Assembly (NCBI GenBank): GCA_965645245.1
Contig: OZ287073.1
Coordinates: 1,736,001-1,800,000 of the forward strand
Direction of reading: 5' to 3'
Source: Massalongia carnosa
Lineage: Eukaryota
Length of the DNA: 64,000 nt
Part shown: positions 26,993 through 64,000 of the stretch, piece by piece
How the letters are laid out: every line of letters begins with the position of its first letter
How positions within the stretch are numbered: position 1 is the stretch's first letter
Made by a program: the position numbers and the translations under genes
Notes under the pieces: model-generated
Seen by the model: only the letters and a program-made list of their open reading frames with translations
What the model was told of the DNA's origin: nothing
Databases searched by the model: none

Positions 26993-27478
26993 TGAAGTTG
27001 TGTTTAGGATGGGGGGACTGAATGGATCAACGCGAGTTGAGAGAGGTTTATTTTGACGAAGAGAAGAGAGCAAATTATAAACGCTAGTAATCGTCGGCTA
27101 GTCGCTCGCTTAATCCTCTCCCTCCAAGAAGCATTCGCTTCTACTCGGGGAAAGCAAACTTCGTAGGAAAGCAAAGCTTCGTAGGCTCGCAACGTTAAAC
27201 CACAACCACATCACTAAAGCACCACCGCATCATTTAAGTTACTATCAGATTTACTGTAACATTATTATATTATTATCACATCGTTAAATTACTATTGCCG
27301 CTTTAATAAAGAGCTGAAACCTAGTAATATCCTAATTTTTCTTGTACATCTCTTTGCAAAGAAGAATCACCTGTAACATCTGTGATGAATGTTATCTCCG
27401 CCTCATCTTCATCTTCATCTTCATCTTCATTATATACTTGAGATTTAGTCTTTTTCGCTTTCTTTCTCTCTTCTTCGA

Positions 27479-34807: not shown

Positions 34808-37697
34808 CTTCTTCGACATATTTAACGTCTCTTTTCATACGCCAAATCTTCATTCATGTCTGATGCTGCCTCTTTGCTTCTGATTTCTTTAGCTTGTTTT
34901 TCTTTTGCTGCAATCATTTCTTCAGCATTCTCTTTAGTAAGTCCTAATCCTGAACCTAAGGTTCGTAATCGCTTACGAGAGGTAGATTTCTGTTTTAAGT
35001 CATCTTCTCTTCATTTCTGATATATAGATAATTGAATATCATTAAACGTAGCTTGTGTTCAAACGGTTTTTGTATCATTAACAAACGACCCAAATTGCTC
35101 TGAGCAAGTCGGGTCACTCCACAACATTCCTTGTTGAATTTTCTTCTGTCATGTTTGAAGTCCTATTTCAACATCCATTGAGGATGTTGGCAGAATATGA
35201 GGCGAGATTGGAAGAGTAGGCTCTTTTTCTTTATTGTGTAGCTTTTCTTGAGCATCAGGCGACTTGAAAGTTTTAAGCAGTGAGATGCAGTTTTTAGCAT
35301 TAACAGGCCACATTCCTGATTTCTCAAAAGCACTTCGAATAGTACATTTCTTGAAATTATTATCACGTATCTTAGTAAGATCCGCAAGAAATCGCTGTAA
35401 TGTATACTCAACATTGAATTCCAATAAAGCATCTTGAATTGTCATATCATGCCAGTGTTTATAAGGTTGAAACACTCTAACATCAAGCGGCTGCATACAG
35501 TGTGAAAGATGCGGTATAAGTGAATAAGGACGAATGTGATTTATATTAGCAAGAGCTATGAACTCAGGAGTAGAATGACTGCCACGATTATCCATGAGCA
35601 TTATTTTCCAGTCTGCTTCTGGTCCAGAGTCTGAATGATCAATATAATGCTGAAGAAACACCTGTGCTATCTTGTCAGAGGTAAATCCGTTTTCTGAAGA
35701 AATAATTCGAGTTCCCTTTGGCAGCTCTTTTGGAAACCATTCTATCATGATTTCATGCCCTTGTATAAGAATTAAAGGTGGTGGAGGATGGTCGCCCGCT
35801 GGATTGATGCATTCAAATATCGTGAGAGATTTACGATTTTCAGGACTTATCGCATAGAACTAAAATATATATTTAACTTGCCGAATAAATGAATAAGATT
35901 ATAGAATCTAACTTCTAATACGTCTGTGGGTGTCAGAATTTGATGCCCTTTCATACACCCAACACGAAAGCCTGCCTCGTCGAAATTGACAGTACTCTTC
36001 TTTGTTTTGATCTGTAACGTCTTTAAAGCTTGTCTATAATCTACAAATCATGCTTGTATATCCTTCTCTTGTGCAGCGGTGAATCGTATCATTGCTAATG
36101 GCTTAGTCTTGATCTTGTGTAGGTTATTCTTTTTCCACCATGTTCTGAACCAGCGTAGAGTAGGTCCACTCGACTCAGGATTTTGCCCGCGTTTTAAACT
36201 GACAATTGCATTGAATACAACTCCGTGCGATGGTTGAATACCCTGTGCAAGTAAGGATCGAATAAAGTGATAAATCGCTTTTACTTGATGCTCCTCAAGT
36301 ATCTTGTTTTGTCCACCTCTTGCACTTTTTGCACTGGAAGAAGATTTCATATCAGAAAAAGAAGATTTCATATCAGTCGCAATAGAGCTGTACAACGTTG
36401 TAGGCCGAATTTTGAATATCTGAGCTGCGCATGCAGTTCGTTCGTCAGGATTTTCCAACAAGAATGTTTTAGCATCGCTAATACGTGTTTGTAAGGATAC
36501 AGAATCCATTGTAGATATAGATATCAATGATTTATGATGTGATAATAATATAATAATGTGATAGTAAATCTGATAGTAATTTAAATGATGCGGTGGTGCT
36601 TTAGTGATGCTTTCCCCGACTAGCTTCTTGGAGGGAGAGGATTAAGCGAGCGACTAGCCGACGATTAATTATCCGTGTGGTTAGGGTTAGATTGTCCGGG
36701 TGGCTGATCATTAATCGTCGGCCTCGCTTAGCTGCCTCCATACGAAGTGTAATCGGGAACGTAGGCAAGCGGTCTGCGTAGTTTCAATTTCAGGGTTTGT
36801 CTAAATTCACCCATTTTATCACCTATTTTGCAGCTTTTTGCAGCTGTGGGACCATTTACAAATCCGCTATACACTATAAAATTGGGCCTCCAAGTGGAAC
36901 ACGCTTGGAAAATTACACTCCATCCATCAAAGAGATTGCAAGAATGTTGCGGAATTTATCAGCAAAATTCGCGATATTAAATCAGAAATCAGTGACCTGA
37001 AATCACCATGGATGAGGCAGTTACAATTCATACCCTTAATTCGCTAGACACTCAGTTTAAGTCTTACCTGGCCATCCTCAGTCATGAGTCGAGGGAGAAA
37101 GCAGAACTTCCAACTCTTGAGGTCTTAGCAAAGGCCTTGGAGGATGAAGAGTTACGACTAGCCAATCAGGACAAAGCGACTGCAAATTACATGCAGAAAG
37201 GAAAGAAAGGAGGAGGGGACTCCGGTAAAAAGGAAAAATCGGGGGAGAACTCCAACTCTAATAATTCTACCGACAGCAAAGACTCATATGTCTGCACCCG
37301 ATGTAAGAAAACACATGGAAAAGGTGATTGCTGGATGGAAAAGGTGGAATGTAATGGATGTGGAAAACACGGTCACATCAAGAAGTTCTGTAAAAAGAAC
37401 AAGACGAACCAGGAAAGCGAGGCGACCACCCCCGACGTAACCAACAAAGGGCTATCTTGCTTTATCAGAAAGTTCATACCGACCAATTAGATCGAAGAGA
37501 AGAAAGGAATGGGAGCTATTCATTTGACGTGTAAGTCAGTAGCCACAGATTTTCCAACAGTAAACTCCAGAGTAATCATAGACTCTTGGGCCACCGGCCA
37601 TTTCTTCTCAAACCGAGACTTCTTTTCCATCTACACGGAGTACTACCACGAGTTTCAAACTGGCTCCGGACAAGTTCTTCCTGCCTTCGGGTATGGA

Positions 37698-45139: not shown

Positions 45140-45815
45140 GCCGCCGGTCATCAAACACCTTCTCCCGGTTTAATCATGCAAGGTCGTAGAATAATGCAGA
45201 ACTGGTTCCAAGAAGGGCTGCCCACGGAGACTCTGATTGAAGTATCAGAAAGTGGGTTCATCACCGATGAAATAGCCATTGAATTTTTGAAGCATTTCAT
45301 TGCGAATACAAACTCGGGGCCTACAAAGCAGTAGAAATTGATGCTCATGGATAATCATGGGACTCATTGCACTCCTGAGTTTATAAAGCTTGCCAATAAA
45401 AATCACATTCGCCCTCTCCCCCTGATACCACATCTGACTCATTGTATGCAACCCCTTGATGTGAGCGTATTTCAACCCTATAAGCATTGGCATGATACCG
45501 TAAGGCTATCCAAGATGTCCTTGCAGAATTCAATACTGAGAATAATGAGAATGATGAGGGTGATGAGGGTGATGAGGGTGATGAGGATGAGCAGTTTAAC
45601 TTTTATCAAGGGGGCTATCGTCAGACTAGGAGTTACTATTAGAACGCGCAATGATATATATCTACTTATTAATAATATTTGCAAATGAGGTTGAAAATAA
45701 AGCAAATGGAGGTTGCAAATCATGATGAGACGGCGTCGCAAATAAGTTGTAAATCCTGAAATTGAAACTACGCAGACCGCTTGCCTACGCAGACCGCTTT
45801 CCCCGGCTAGAGGTG

Positions 45816-47127
45816 CACGCCCCTGAAAAAAAAACTGTCAACGTGTAAGCGAGCTTACCCAACTAAATTTTACCCCTTTTTATCAACATTTCACCTTTAC
45901 ATTGCGATAACCAGTCAATTGAAAGCTATTTACATCAAATTAATGACCAGTCATGGCCCCCTCAGCTGAGATGACGTCCTTTAGCCGTTGAGGCATTGAT
46001 CGTACTCTCTCATTAATAAACTCCTGACTGACTGTCGCCCAGCCCTCACAAATCAATGCTTTTAAGCTCGCTTGGTCCCAATGAGGATACTTTTTAATAT
46101 GCTTGTGGGCTGCCAGCTGTTTTCAATAGGAGCCAAATCAGGGGAAGAAGAGCAGTTGAAATAATGCTTTAAACGATGATCCTCCTTCCATTTCTTGACT
46201 GCGTTTCTCGTCCTGCCTGTGCCATGCCCGGAATCACCATCTTCTTCGAGCACAAAATCATCCCCTCGCTCTAGCCACGGCTTGACAACGGGCTCAAGTA
46301 TTGAGTTAATGTATACTTGATGCGTCATCTTGCCATTGCTGTTGCCCGGCACTTCGTAGAATATAATATCCGACTTGAAGTTGTAGCCTACAGCCGCCCA
46401 GCAATGCAGTCTCTTTCGATCTTTCTCCGCTGGCGCATCACGATGTTGTATAAAATCCCATCTATAGCGTGTGCCTGGCTGACGTATGATGCATAATTTG
46501 CCCTCGGGCCCGTAGGAGAAATGAACTTCGTCACTAAATCGTACTCGATACCAATCTTCTGGTTTAGGATATTTGGCCAGCATTATATGAGCGTATTCCA
46601 CCCGTTTTTGCATAGGAGGGTCGGCCAGCCATCCTTTGACGCAGGCTAGACATTTCTCGTAATTCAATGCAGCACGTAGCACGTTATGCATTGTACGACC
46701 CACAACATCTGCTTCAACTTCCATCGCAACTTGTTCCCATGTCAAGCGTTTTCCTTCGAGTTGTAGCTCATCTTCCTGAAGCAGCTGATCAGCCTCTCGT
46801 ACTTGCTCGTCTGTGATTTTTGATCGTCTTCCTCGCGTTTCTATAAGCTCTGTATGATGACGAGTACGTGTCGAAGCTCCTTTGCGAATAATTCTGTAGC
46901 CAGCTCGTTCCGAAACGCCATACTTCTTGAAAAGATTTCGTGGATCATGTACGATGCCTTCATCAAGAAGATATTCATGAATTCCTTGAAGTTTAGCTCG
47001 AATGGGAGTATCGTAGTGAGTTGCACGTTGCTTACGAGGCATGTTGGTGTGGATGGTTGATGAAAAGGGGGGGATTTTAATGGGGTAAAGTCGCCTACAC
47101 GTTTCCAGTTTTTTTTTCAGGGGCGTG
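45816..47127 (-). mobile_element. Tc1/IS630-type DNA transposon D (DD38E transposase 47042-45940, one frameshift near 46105) with CACGC termini and 5-bp TSD
   Basis: 37-bp TIRs CACGCCCCTGAAAAAAAAACTG(TC/GA)AACGTGTA(A/G)GCGA (34/37 identical) with direct repeat AGGTG on both flanks. Motifs VRFSDEVHF, CWAAVG, LEEDGDSGH, SPDLAPIEN. Confidence 0.93.
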
Positions 47128-47451
47128 AGGTGGTACACCTCGTGTGGAGGCAGCTAAGCGAGGCCGACGATTAGTTAAAAAGAACGCGAAGGATCCGCTG
47201 TTGTGAGTCACTGAACCAAGACGTCTTCTTTCTACAATCTTATAAAAGCTAACGGAGTTGATATTTTTCAGCGACATGAATCTGCTTTTACGGACTGCTG
47301 CCTAAAATTTTGTTAACAAGAATTCTGCTTCGCATTGCGGCTCATTATAAACCTTCTACAACTAAAATCTTTGCATCAATTCTTTATAACTAAGCCATTT
47401 TTTTTGTATTGACGGCCGATTTGTATTCTACCTTCTTTTTGCGGACTTTAG

Positions 47452-57937: not shown

Positions 57938-59575
57938 TCATGGTAGATTCTCCACCGAATCCCCCTTCAAATCCCCTCCTAGAACCTCCTTGGCGAACCA
58001 AGGTTTGTACTCCTCGTCTACCCATTTCGCAAGTCTTCTTACCGCTGTCACGACCTGGTAAATACCCAAGACCGAATTCGTCCGTCCCAGTTCCAAATCT
58101 TTCAAAATCACTACTCTATGATCCGCCATTGCCTCTGCAATCATCAATATCCAATTATGACCCTGCACAACCAACAGTGGGAGCACAGGCAAAGACGCGG
58201 ATCCTTTGGCAAGCTGCCTTAGCCGTGCGAAATGTGCCGAGACCCATGTTCCCAACTGCATATGTGCGTCATCTTCATCCACCGCTGCGCGCTTCGTCTC
58301 GATGCTTACGGCGATAGGCAAGAATCTAACATATTCCGCCATTGTATGATTTATGCTCCCTTTGCCCTCGGCACGTAACCTGAATATAATCTGCTGATGC
58401 AATTCCCGGGAAGGGTCGATCACAAGCGCATAATCGATCATTTCGGTATTCGTAGCCGAACCAGAGGCAGTGGTGGGCAAAAGAGATAAATCGTGGATCT
58501 TGGCAGTCGTGACGTCGCAGTACCAAACGCCCTTGACTTTCCACCAACCGCGGAGAGCTAGTCGGAGCAGCGTCGAGTGCACCTCGCTATTCCATTCAGA
58601 CTCGGAAGACCTTTTGTTCTCACATTCCATCGCTGCGTCCAGAACCTCAAGCACACGTTCCCAGAAACTCTCATGACTCAAACAACCATTGGCAACCGTA
58701 TTCTGTTCAGGCTCCTCCGTTCCAACGGAAAAGTTGGTATCGTCCATAAAAAGATTATCTATAATTGTGTTTACTGTTGATTTTACAGCCCCCGGTACCA
58801 CCGCCTTTCCATTAGAGATCATTCGTAAATCCCGATATAAGTCTTTCGCTCCAGCTGGTATGGGATAACCAGGTGTCCCAATCGCCTTCATTTCAATTTG
58901 GGCGTCGGTAAGCTGAAGGTCACCCATACGTTTTGTAGGACAACGCGAGCGCGGATTGGTATTACTGGTACTTTTTAATCCTGTGGTGGCATCACTTGTG
59001 GTCGATCTAGTGGGCGAATCAGCAGCGAGTAGGTCGGCTGGAGCCGGGAGTGGCCGTAGCAGGTCGAAGGAACTAAAGGCAGCTTCTAGGCGTGGAACTG
59101 CGCTTAGGGATTGCGGCCTGGGAATTATGTATTGATCTTGGTAAACGGATGAGGAGTCGCGGTGAATAGGGGAAGTTAAAGGTGACCGAGCTGGGGCAGG
59201 TAAACGCGCTTTGCGCGGTGAGATAGTCTTTGGATTTGACAGCTTATCTACTGCCGGCTTCTCGCTGGCTTTCTGGGGAGGGGCTTGACGAGGTGAAGAT
59301 TTGTCACGATCCATTATGTTCCCGCTGGTCTTGCGAGGGCGTAATGCGTGTTGGTAGGTTTCTTTGCACCGGACAATCGACAGTTTCTCGGAATGATAAT
59401 CTTTAGGATGATCAGGATGACCCTTGAGCCAGTTGAAAACACGGCTGATATCTACAATAGGTGCCTCAATATGGAGATTTGAACGTGAGGAAGGCATGAT
59501 GTACAAGTTGAGAACGACTATTATCATGCCAAAGTCAAAGAGTGGATAAAAGTACGGTGGACTATGACCAAGCAT
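57938..59575 (-). CDS. Fungal PD-(D/E)XK nuclease-like protein (true start may be MPSS at 59498)
   Basis: Intronless 545-codon ORF with a Ser/Pro-rich N-terminal half. C-terminal motifs ESEWNSEVH, MIDYAL, IAVSIETKR, A..QLGTW, VQGHNW. Confidence 0.8.
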   Translation of the reverse strand: MLGHSPPYFYPLFDFGMIIVVLNLYIMPSSRSNLHIEAPIVDISRVFNWLKGHPDHPKDYHSEKLSIVRCKETYQHALRPRKTSGNIMDRDKSSPRQAPPQKASEKPAVDKLSNPKTISPRKARLPAPARSPLTSPIHRDSSSVYQDQYIIPRPQSLSAVPRLEAAFSSFDLLRPLPAPADLLAADSPTRSTTSDATTGLKSTSNTNPRSRCPTKRMGDLQLTDAQIEMKAIGTPGYPIPAGAKDLYRDLRMISNGKAVVPGAVKSTVNTIIDNLFMDDTNFSVGTEEPEQNTVANGCLSHESFWERVLEVLDAAMECENKRSSESEWNSEVHSTLLRLALRGWWKVKGVWYCDVTTAKIHDLSLLPTTASGSATNTEMIDYALVIDPSRELHQQIIFRLRAEGKGSINHTMAEYVRFLPIAVSIETKRAAVDEDDAHMQLGTWVSAHFARLRQLAKGSASLPVLPLLVVQGHNWILMIAEAMADHRVVILKDLELGRTNSVLGIYQVVTAVRRLAKWVDEEYKPWFAKEVLGGDLKGDSVENLP

Positions 59576-60948: not shown

Positions 60949-61919
60949 CACGCGGTCGTAAAAAAAAACGCAACGTGCAAGCGAGAATACCCCAAAAAAA
61001 CACCAAATTCACCCCTAATTCTCCTTTTTTTCACCTACATCATTGCATTATCTATCTGAAATTTGCAACTAGTTACCAGTCATCGCACCCTCCGCATCTA
61101 TTACCTCCTGAAGCCTTCTAGGCATATCAAGCACCCGTTCATTGATAAATTCCTGACTGACACTGGCCCATCCCTCACGAATCAACGCTTCCAATGAGGC
61201 ATCATCCCAATGAGGGTACTTCCGTACGTGCTGTTTTATGGGAAGCCAGCAGTTCTCAATAGGAGATAAGTCAGGCGATGAAGCGCAGTTGAAATAGTGT
61301 TCCAATTGATGCTTCTGTTTCCACGTTTTGACCGCGTTTCTCGTCTTACCCGTGCCATGACCTGAATCACCGTCTTCTTCTAAAACGAAGTCATCGCCAC
61401 GATTCAAGCAGGACTTCACAACGGGCTCTAGTATAGAATCTATATAAACTTGATGCGTCATCTTGCCATTGCTGTTGCCCGGTACGTCCTAAAACTAGAT
61501 GCCTGACTTGAAATTGAAGCCCACCGCCGCCCATGTATGCTCGCGTTTTCTATCTTTTTCAGGCGGTGCATCGCGATGTTGAATGCAGTCCCATCTATAT
61601 CGTGTTCCGGGCTGTCTAATGATTCGTAATTGACCCTCAGGACCATATCCGAAGTGCACTTCGTCACTGAATCGTACGCGATGCCAGTCTTCAGGCTTTG
61701 AATATCTTTATACATCAGGGAAGCGTATTCCACCCGTCTGTTCATGGACGAGTCTGACAGCCATCCTTTGACACAGGCCAGACATTTCTCATAATTCAAA
61801 GCAGCTATGAGCGTGCGTTGCATTGTACGTCCAGAAATTTCGGCTCCCACCTCTGTGGCCAACTGACTCCATGTATAACGTTTTCCTTCCAGTTGTAGTC
61901 CGTCATTCTGCAAAATTTG
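60949..61919 (-). mobile_element. Second, diverged member of the CACGC-terminus DD38E Tc1-like family; 5' part displaced by a copia insertion
   Basis: Terminus CACGCGGTCGTAAAAAAAAACGCAACGTGCAAGCGAG is similar to element D. Protein FVLEEDGDSGHGTGKTRNAV..SPDLSPIENCW is collinear with D. Frameshift and stop present. Confidence 0.9.
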
Positions 61920-64000
61920 TGTCAGCCAATTTAGTGGTCAAGCAGTAAGCGATATGTAGCTCGGATACGGTAATCTATTAACCGAATCCCAACATTCTAG
62001 TAACTGAGAGAATGGGTGGAAAATCCTTTCTAGGCAAGCAATCATCACCTCAATTCCAAGTGTCAATTCCAAGTGTCAATTCCAAGTGTCAATTCCAAGT
62101 GTCAATTCCAAGTGTCAATATCAAGTGTCTATCTAAAACGTAAATCATTCTCCAATCACCAAGAGCTTAGATCAATAAATCAAGCTCAATAGTTATGAGC
62201 CCGGAAGCACATCCATCGTTTTAGAAGAAAGTACCAACCTGCATTTTGCAACTTGCATCTTACCTTGTAAGTTTACATCATCTTGCATCAAATAACCATC
62301 AAGTCATCAAATCAAAAATCAACATGAGTACCACGCGAAAGATAGTCCTAGGCAAGCCAGCCGATTGGGACACCTGGTTTTCCTTCGTCCGATCACGGGC
62401 CACAAACAGCGGAATTTGGGACCTAGTGAATCCAGAAATCATTACCAAGCCAATAAGCAACCAATCGCCAACGGAACCGGTGTTCATCTTATCAACAGAC
62501 TCCGCAACTTTTGACCCAAGAGCCTACGAAGTATACAAGGCACAAACCCACATCTACAAAATTCAGCTAGCCAAGTACGAAAAGCAGCAAAAGGCATTTG
62601 CCGACCTTATTACCTTCATTCAAGATACCATCACAGTCCAAAATGCCACCTACATTCAGAAAGAAGAGCCTCACCCATGGAACCAGCTTCGAGCACTGAA
62701 AACCCGCTTAGCACCAAGCGACTCAGCACGCTGCATAGAGATCGAGACCAAATATCACAGGTTATGCAAGGGATCAGGCAAGCAGGATATAGAAACGTGG
62801 TTAGAAGAATGGCAAACAGTCTACACCGATGGCAAGGCATATGGAGTTGGTGAAATGATGGGAACACGACCTATTCGTGATTTTATAATGGCCGTTCTTC
62901 CCACCGAACCTTCATTTGCCAACGCTCATCTGATTACTTTGGACAGCAAGGAAGAGAAAGATTTCCACCCGCTAATTGAGAGCTTTCGTAAATATGTTCG
63001 CCTGCATCAAACGCAAAAAAATAAGAATAATAACACGCATTCAGCTTTTGCAACCGAGAAAAAGAAGGAAGGACAGGGAGCGACATTTAATGGGCAAAAA
63101 ACGCCTCCCAAATGTCTTTGTGGGTCCGTTCATTGGTACAATGACTGTTACTATCTAGTACCAGAGAAGCGGCCCTCAAATTGGACTTCCAGACCCCAAA
63201 TTCAAACGCAGATTGATGAAGCAATGAAAGACCAGCAGTTAAAAGCTAAGGTGGAAAAATCCCTTCAGCGATCAAAGGAAATACAACAATCCAAAGCCAC
63301 TAAAACCACTAATACCAACACCAACACTACTGAGAAGGAGTTAGGCGCTTTTACATCTACTAAAACATCGTCATCATTCTCGGCAGATAGCTACACAATC
63401 AAGAGCTCATGGATATTGGATAACGGGTCTAATATCCATGTGTGCAACAACACCATGAAATCGCGCTACACACAGGAAAGGAAATCAATGGGAGAGTATC
63501 TTACTGCGGGCACCCAACGCCTAGCAATAGAAAGCTATGGTACGGTCAAAATCACCGTATCAACTCCTACCGGACCTCAAAGCATCACACTTCTAAATGT
63601 AGCCTATGTATCCAACTTCATGACCAACCTAGTTTCTCAGGACTTGCTCTATGTGAAAGGCCTTTACTTTGATAATTGGAAGAATCACCTCCATCGGGAA
63701 GGGAAGACGGTTGCTTATGTAAAGCGTTATAACGGCCATTATTTGCTAGAGGACAACACATCATCAGATCAAGCATCAGCTTTCCTAGTGCAACAGAAAC
63801 CAAAGATAGCTATCAATAAAACCGCAACAGCATACGAATGGCATCAGATGCTAGCCCATGCCTCGGATGAATCTATTCAACATCTCGAGTCATCTACTAG
63901 GGGAGTCAAAATATCAAAAGAATCAGAAGGAAAAGTCCCCAAAACCAACGAGTGCGAACCTTGCGCATTATCCAAAGCACATCGCATTGTTTCTCGTTCA
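61920..64000 (+). mobile_element. Ty1/copia LTR retrotransposon, 5' part: LTR ~61920-62191, PBS, gag-pol ORF from 62324 running off the window
   Basis: Starts TG at the break in the Tc1-like ORF. Copia-type PBS GTTATGAGCCC at 62192-62202. Frame MSTTRKIVLGKPADWDTW..CLCGSVHWYNDC..WILDNGSNIHVCN (protease)..WHQMLAH..CEPCALSK appears open to the window end. Confidence 0.92.
62051..62128 (+). repeat. Six tandem copies of the 13-mer CAATTCCAAGTGT inside the copia LTR
   Basis: Five perfect copies and one variant (CAATATCAAGTGT). Confidence 0.95.

Follow-up and report, generated by a model that had tools for sequence, protein, structure and literature searches.

Among the features described as uniting transposons of the IS630, Tc1, mariner and pogo groups is their target, the dinucleotide TA (PMC7325037), and in work on fungal genomes TA serves as a criterion for identifying Tc1/mariner elements (PMC4188875, PMC2836289). 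One fungal survey gives TA as the target of six out of eight families, and reports the target of TremH as not definable (PMC2836289). For the Intruder (DD38E) elements, TA duplications are reported, and a search in which fungi were also covered placed them in animals only (PMC7731502). Departures from the usual duplication length are described in the hAT superfamily, where hAT5, hAT6 and hAT7, with 5-, 6- and 7-bp duplications instead of 8 bp, have been named as groups (PMC12730594). Here we describe a Tc1-like element with a 5-bp direct repeat at its ends, found in a 64,000-nucleotide (nt) stretch of the Massalongia carnosa assembly GCA_965645245.1 (contig OZ287073.1, positions 1,736,001 to 1,800,000; the whole stretch is hereafter called the window). 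We regard it with high confidence as a dead cut-and-paste transposon of the IS630/Tc1/mariner superfamily, and as a member of a large transposon clade, present in filamentous ascomycetes, whose insertion duplicates five base pairs.

The coordinates of the element and its surroundings are given in Table 1. Its 37-bp terminal inverted repeats (TIRs) start with CACGC, and each contains a tract of nine A residues. The two ends agree at each of their outermost 22 nt and at 34 of 37 nt overall, while weaker complementarity reaches 79 nt at 81%. The 22-nt end sequence occurs at two places in the window, both of them ends of this element, and at none in 100 shuffles. The direct repeat AGGTG adjoins both ends. 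These ends and repeats are as described in a sequence-only reading of the window, which had proposed a Tc1-fold family with a 5-bp duplication. A single transposase gene lies between the TIRs; the 1,312 bp of the window copy are in keeping with the size by which Tc1-like elements are recognized (1.3–2.4 kb), and relatives measure 1.16–1.8 kb. The translation contains the claimed Tc1-type motifs (FSDE, EDGD and SPDLAPIEN), and a hand count gives the claimed 38 residues from the first D of DGD to the E. One correction to the earlier reading concerns the open reading frame, which is broken directly after WQPT (around position 46105). The window transposase is 97% identical to P0001, an intact relative of 368 amino acids, and the break looks like a 4-nt deletion relative to it, as judged from the P0001 protein and not from its DNA. 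Because the transposase gene is frameshifted, the window element is dead.

Whether the flanking pentamer is a target-site duplication was decided mainly on relatives, and less on the window itself. A protein search gave 365 matches, with intact proteins of about 367 amino acids, and all named homologues belong to Pezizomycotina. We aligned 36 relatives (alignment A1) and retrieved 80 metagenome loci with flanking DNA. The inverted ends of the relatives begin with C[A/T][C/A]G followed by an A-tract, as in the window copy. End pairs were recovered in 34 of 81 sequences, namely the 80 loci and the window, by a fixed rule that called for the end motif, an element length of 1.0–2.3 kb, and agreement of the two ends at 19 or more of 24 nt. 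After removal of three duplicate insertions and one without a left flank, 30 insertions were left, including the window copy. A perfect direct repeat of exactly 5 bp, variable in sequence, is present at the termini of 20 of these 30, whereas repeats of any other length from 2 to 9 bp flank at most five, and TA, the hallmark duplication of the superfamily, is found at the termini of none. Copies with identical ends differ in their pentamer (CCGAC in L027, CCCGC in L046 and CCCGG in L034), so the pentamers are target sequence and not part of the element. A perfect pentamer also flanks the element of L003, a locus that the rule passed over because the end reads CACAG.

When all the flanks were compared with all the loci, one decisive pair emerged. 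In L034, 104 nt on the left side of the element and 199 nt on its right side match a continuous stretch of L038 (99% and 95% identity, respectively), and the two matches overlap on L038 by exactly five bases. The empty site in L038 reads ...GATGACTG CCCGG GACGGGG..., with CCCGG once; in the filled site of L034, CCCGG stands before CAAGCGG... and again after ...CCGCTTG. This pair directly shows that insertion in the clade duplicates five bases. Together with the 30 insertions, it bears out the central proposal of the sequence-only reading.

At L034:3699-3731, L038:1398-1420 and L026:60-110, two subfamilies of the clade have inserted into one host sequence, at points no more than about 6 bp from each other; L034 has this sequence empty, and it looks like a local insertion hot spot.

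Several points weigh against this interpretation of the element and its clade. Ten of the 30 insertions picked by the rule lack a perfect pentamer. L045 and L050 are false pairs formed from other palindromes, and the true ends of L050 have no repeat. A 6-bp repeat fits L054, the repeat of L004 is shifted by one base and that of L048 contains a single mismatch, while L014, L019, L026, L049 and L074 show no flank repeat at all. The relatives whose DNA was compared are all at most 60% identical to the window copy, and the metagenome contigs are assigned to fungi through their protein relatives. Moreover, the strand-transfer stagger, and the role of a protein loop considered below, are what we infer. 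Finally, the only empty-site comparison within the window does not give a simple result. The host of the element is a pogo-type terminus, and a sister terminus without the insertion lies at 36712-36798; the host halves at 45751-45789 and 47134-47173 are 97% and 95% identical to it. However, the sister lacks 9 bp at the insertion point, a gap that the earlier reading overlooked. The missing bases comprise the pentamer and its neighbours, bracketed by TA, and they misfit a plain 5-bp duplication: the sister has a single TA, whereas the window, after removal of the element and one pentamer, reads TA, C, pentamer, C, TA. A 5-bp duplication thus needs the assumption that the 9 bp missing from the sister are a separate insertion or deletion.

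One of the ten exceptions has its own explanation. The flanks of L026 come from two separate places; the copy is probably recombinant or chimeric, and its lack of a duplication is thereby explained. A motif scan of the 80 loci and the window recovered the true ends of L050, and found no further end pairs or miniature derivatives. L050 and L074 belong to a basal subclade with CACGCGG ends, in which the two complete copies have no flank repeat; single ends of this type are present in L062 and L073. In this subclade the duplication may be of different length, or the copies may simply be old.

Taken by itself, the sister terminus points to an ordinary TA duplication, which we treated as the main rival explanation. 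The element would then span 45810-47133 and be longer by six bases on either side (GAGGTG... and ...AGGTGG), with AGGTG internal to it. The sister runs straight through its single TA, whereas the window has TA, 6 nt, the core, 6 nt and TA, and removal of 45810-47133 with one TA leaves two hosts that differ by 1 nt instead of 10 nt. Yet the six outer bases of one end show no inverted-repeat relation to those of the other (zero of six are complementary). Copies of relatives that share the same ends differ in the bases beyond C[A/T][C/A]G; neither TA flanks nor conserved GAGGTG/AGGTGG termini, which the sequence-only reading had named as the observation that would count against it, were found in most copies. 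In the L034/L038 pair the duplicated pentamer is seen directly. The host terminus is also prone to insertions and deletions: its length differs by a further 9 nt nearby, and a tandem duplication of 17 bp that the sister lacks (45768-45801) lies directly to the left of the insertion, which makes a separate origin of the missing 9 bp plausible.

The TA bracket itself is accounted for by target preference. Of 28 insertions, inspected at nine offsets per side and with the pentamer taken from its right-flank copy, 12 have TA at +7/+8 past the end (binomial p 2e-8, with a background of 5.8%) and seven have it at -8/-7 (p 9e-4). The first position of the pentamer is C in 22 of 28 and the second is C in 21 of 28. 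The preferred target is therefore approximately TA-S-[CCNNS]-S-TA, which is roughly palindromic; TA-C-[CACCT]-C-TA, as present at the window site, agrees with it to the left and to the right. Since TA at exactly these distances is predicted by the preference of the clade, the bracket is not a sign of TA duplication, and we consider an ordinary TA element improbable. An origin of the nine additional host bases as a footprint or a palindromic addition was likewise dropped, as superfluous given this preference. Removal of the element with one AGGTG does restore a hairpin in the host, as the sequence-only reading had stated, although it is GAGGTG-GTA-CACCTC, with the loop GTA and not TAC; the matching hairpin claimed for the sister copy is not predicted at that position.

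It is very improbable that the pentamers were not made by insertion, being instead chance matches or short repeats that already existed at preferred sites. The composition of the targets is indeed biased (CCNNS), and random re-pairing of the right flanks in 2000 trials gave on average 1.0 pentamer match per 30 insertions, and up to 6. The observed number is 20, however, the signal is limited to a length of five, and the empty site in L038 holds its pentamer once.

The 5-bp duplication is carried by an enzyme of the Tc1 type. When a profile of alignment A1 was compared with PDB sequences, the only match was the catalytic domain of Sleeping Beauty SB100X (E 2.6e-17). In Pfam, both the window transposase (E 9e-7) and P0001 (E 2.6e-9) match DDE_3, the only family found in scans of these two proteins. 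As to an N-terminal paired-like helix-turn-helix region, many relatives carry HTH_Tnp_Tc3_2 (PF01498) in precomputed annotations, and a model of P0001 is helical over residues 14-135. A fold search with this AlphaFold model (mean predicted local distance difference test score, pLDDT, 77.5) placed chains of Mos1, Sleeping Beauty and SETMAR at all of ranks 1-15, with a TM-score of 0.75 to Sleeping Beauty, normalized to the target. By homology of its transposase, and consistently with the predicted fold, the element is placed in the IS630/Tc1/mariner superfamily, as a variant in the TA hallmark.

Transposons of the Transib/RAG lineage have CAC ends and 5-bp duplications. Membership in another superfamily of this kind (Transib or CACTA-type, with 5-bp duplications and CA...TG ends), with only a superficial likeness to Tc1, is the least credible of the alternatives and can be set aside: the CAC termini and the 5-bp duplication that the element has in common with Transib, a duplication also mentioned for Transib-related groups in PMC12730594, are an analogy only, as the Transib/RAG transposase is unrelated to that of the element in both sequence and fold, and the sequence and fold matches obtained here are to Tc1/mariner enzymes, none of them to a RAG1-core-like transposase.

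The clade can be compared directly with classical DD34E Tc1 elements, which were found in L079 and as a second element in L065. Both groups are about 1.3 kb long and have one DDE_3 transposase gene of about 350–370 amino acids, inverted ends beginning with CA, and a catalytic core alignable with that of Sleeping Beauty. In contrast, the two DD34E elements have 34 residues from the second D to the E, CACTG/CAGTG ends and TA on both sides, whereas in members of the present clade the duplication is 5 bp, an A-tract follows the C[A/T][C/A]G ends, and 37–43 residues lie between these positions. The transposase of L079 is 28% identical to the query. In a rough tree of 33 elements (FastTree, query-anchored translations with X at stops, rooted on L079), L079 and the second L065 element fall outside, and elements with perfect pentamers, 21 in all, occur throughout the ingroup. 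The window copy clusters with L013, an element whose ends read CACGC and whose pentamer is CCACC. At L065:1481-1495, the DD34E element, with its TA duplication, is inserted in a TA one base past the 5-bp duplication of the clade element.

Across the clade, 37, 38, 39, 40 or 43 residues separate the second D from the E, and DD38E, the family label used in the sequence-only reading, thus suits the window copy and not the clade at large. Sleeping Beauty, when aligned with the clade, lacks four residues immediately past the D..H motif that holds the second catalytic aspartate; the block with the extra residues is modelled at a pLDDT of 59, which is low confidence. Intruder has the same nominal D-38-E spacing as the window copy. 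It is set apart from the fungal clade, as far as its published description goes, by its TA duplications, against five base pairs and a spacing of 37–43 here. The clade comprises 468 clusters at 50% identity (E<=1e-30). Looser cut-offs give 3,990 (E<=1e-10) and 14,165 clusters (E<=0.001), which certainly include ordinary Tc1 relatives.

Building on the observed anatomy, homology, predicted fold, duplication and target preference, we envisage the following course of transposition. The transposase, with a predicted helical DNA-binding region at its N-terminus and a DDE catalytic domain of the RNase-H-like kind, would bind the A-tract inverted ends beginning with C[A/T][C/A]G and excise the element in cut-and-paste fashion. 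Its two 3' ends would then attack target phosphates five base pairs apart, and not two, and gap repair would duplicate the pentamer. Insertion favours a C/G-rich CCNNS within a roughly palindromic TA-S-[N5]-S-TA, and the window copy landed in just such a site, TA-C-CACCT-C-TA, inside the terminus of a pogo-like element. More speculatively, the 3–9 extra residues after the second catalytic aspartate, relative to DD34E enzymes, might re-space the two active sites on the target. The wider proposal, that in a widespread and unrecognized Tc1-fold clade the stagger changed, two base pairs at TA giving way to five at TA-S-CCNNS-S-TA, and that this switch is tied to the insertion beside the second aspartate, is a tentative one, which we rate at slightly below an even chance.

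Table 1. The Tc1-like element, its host site and related features (positions in the window)
Feature	Position	Strand	Remarks
Whole Tc1-like element	45816-47127	- (transposase strand)	1,312 bp; delimited by inverted ends and interrupted pogo-type terminus
Target-site duplication, copy 1	45811-45815	.	AGGTG (CACCT in transposase orientation); relatives have variable 5-bp repeats at the same position
Target-site duplication, copy 2	47128-47132	.	AGGTG, direct repeat of copy 1
TIR, transposase 3' side	45816-45852	+	begins CACGCCCCTG, then A9
TIR, transposase 5' side	47091-47127	-	34/37 nt match the other end
Transposase reading frame	46065-47042	-	ATG at 47042, 326 codons to premature stop; catalytic D, D and E inside
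Transposase C-terminus, shifted frame	45943-46107	-	55 codons; translation matches C-terminus of P0001
Host, inner part of pogo/Fot1-like element terminus	45751-45810	+	DDE_1 tail of host element at 45176-45688
Host, outer part of same pogo-type terminus	47133-47173	+	ends with TAATCGTCGGC motif (minus strand)
Sister pogo-type terminus without insertion	36712-36798	+	9 bp shorter at insertion point
Second, diverged copy of the Tc1-like element	60949-61919	-	one CACGC end kept; other side removed by Copia-like retroelement

The window contains a second member of the family, as had been claimed, with 73% nucleotide identity to the first over 835 nt. It begins at CACGC (60949), and is directly preceded by GACAGG, without TA. 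Its right end was looked for in the window and is absent; the Copia-like retroelement truncates this copy near 61919, and its duplication is therefore unreadable. At the start of that retroelement (62030-62125) there are tandem units of about 13 bp resembling CAAGTGTCAATTC. The surroundings as a whole are a nest of mobile elements, comprising two copies similar to long interspersed nuclear elements, the Copia-like element and pogo-type DDE_1 genes. The pogo-like elements seem to fall into two subfamilies, and a second family of pogo-type termini, with the same TAATCGTCGGC start, is represented at 27088-27282 and 36536-36667. At 36672-36711, about 45 bp separate two pogo-type termini that face one another, and in between is the telomere-like sequence GGTTAGGGTTAG. 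A 9-bp tandem repeat in the tail of a pogo-like frame (45532-45590) translates as repeated MRV. A cytochrome P450 gene (47452-48964) starts at a distance of 320 bp from the Tc1-like element; its two overlapping frames reflect either a frameshift or an intron. On the minus strand, a 545-codon open frame (57938-59575) matches the PD-(D/E)XK nuclease family PDDEXK_12 (E 1.4e-65).

In full-text searches of the literature, in which the matches listed were judged by title or by the opening of the abstract, no Tc1-like element with a 5-bp duplication was found; Repbase, Repbase Reports, Dfam, subscription journals and supplementary files lay outside this search, and an earlier description is possible. 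The DD38E papers among the matches listed concern, by their titles, animals or other families. The 5-bp duplications in the Sordaria genome paper concern probable solo long terminal repeats. TremH of Paracoccidioides, a Tc1/mariner-like family, is described with 42-bp inverted ends in 120 of 161 copies and a protein of 525 amino acids (PMC2836289). By its description, TremH hints that fungal families with targets other than TA have been met before without resolution. The nearest precedent in kind is hAT5, hAT6 and hAT7, described as clades defined by an atypical duplication length in an unrelated superfamily; no equivalent subdivision of Tc1/mariner by duplication length turned up in the literature searched.

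If the 5-bp duplication is indeed characteristic of this clade, annotation pipelines that demand TA would misdefine the ends of its elements, and the finding calls for revised annotation rules, comparable to those implied by the recognition of hAT5, hAT6 and hAT7. The clade would also account for the fungal 'Tc1-like' families reported without a definable target site. Should Repbase or Dfam already record such duplications, the present element would be a confirmed member of a little-known group. For the superfamily as a whole, the clade offers a comparison that bears on what sets active-site spacing and target choice in gene-transfer tools of the Sleeping Beauty and Mos1 type.

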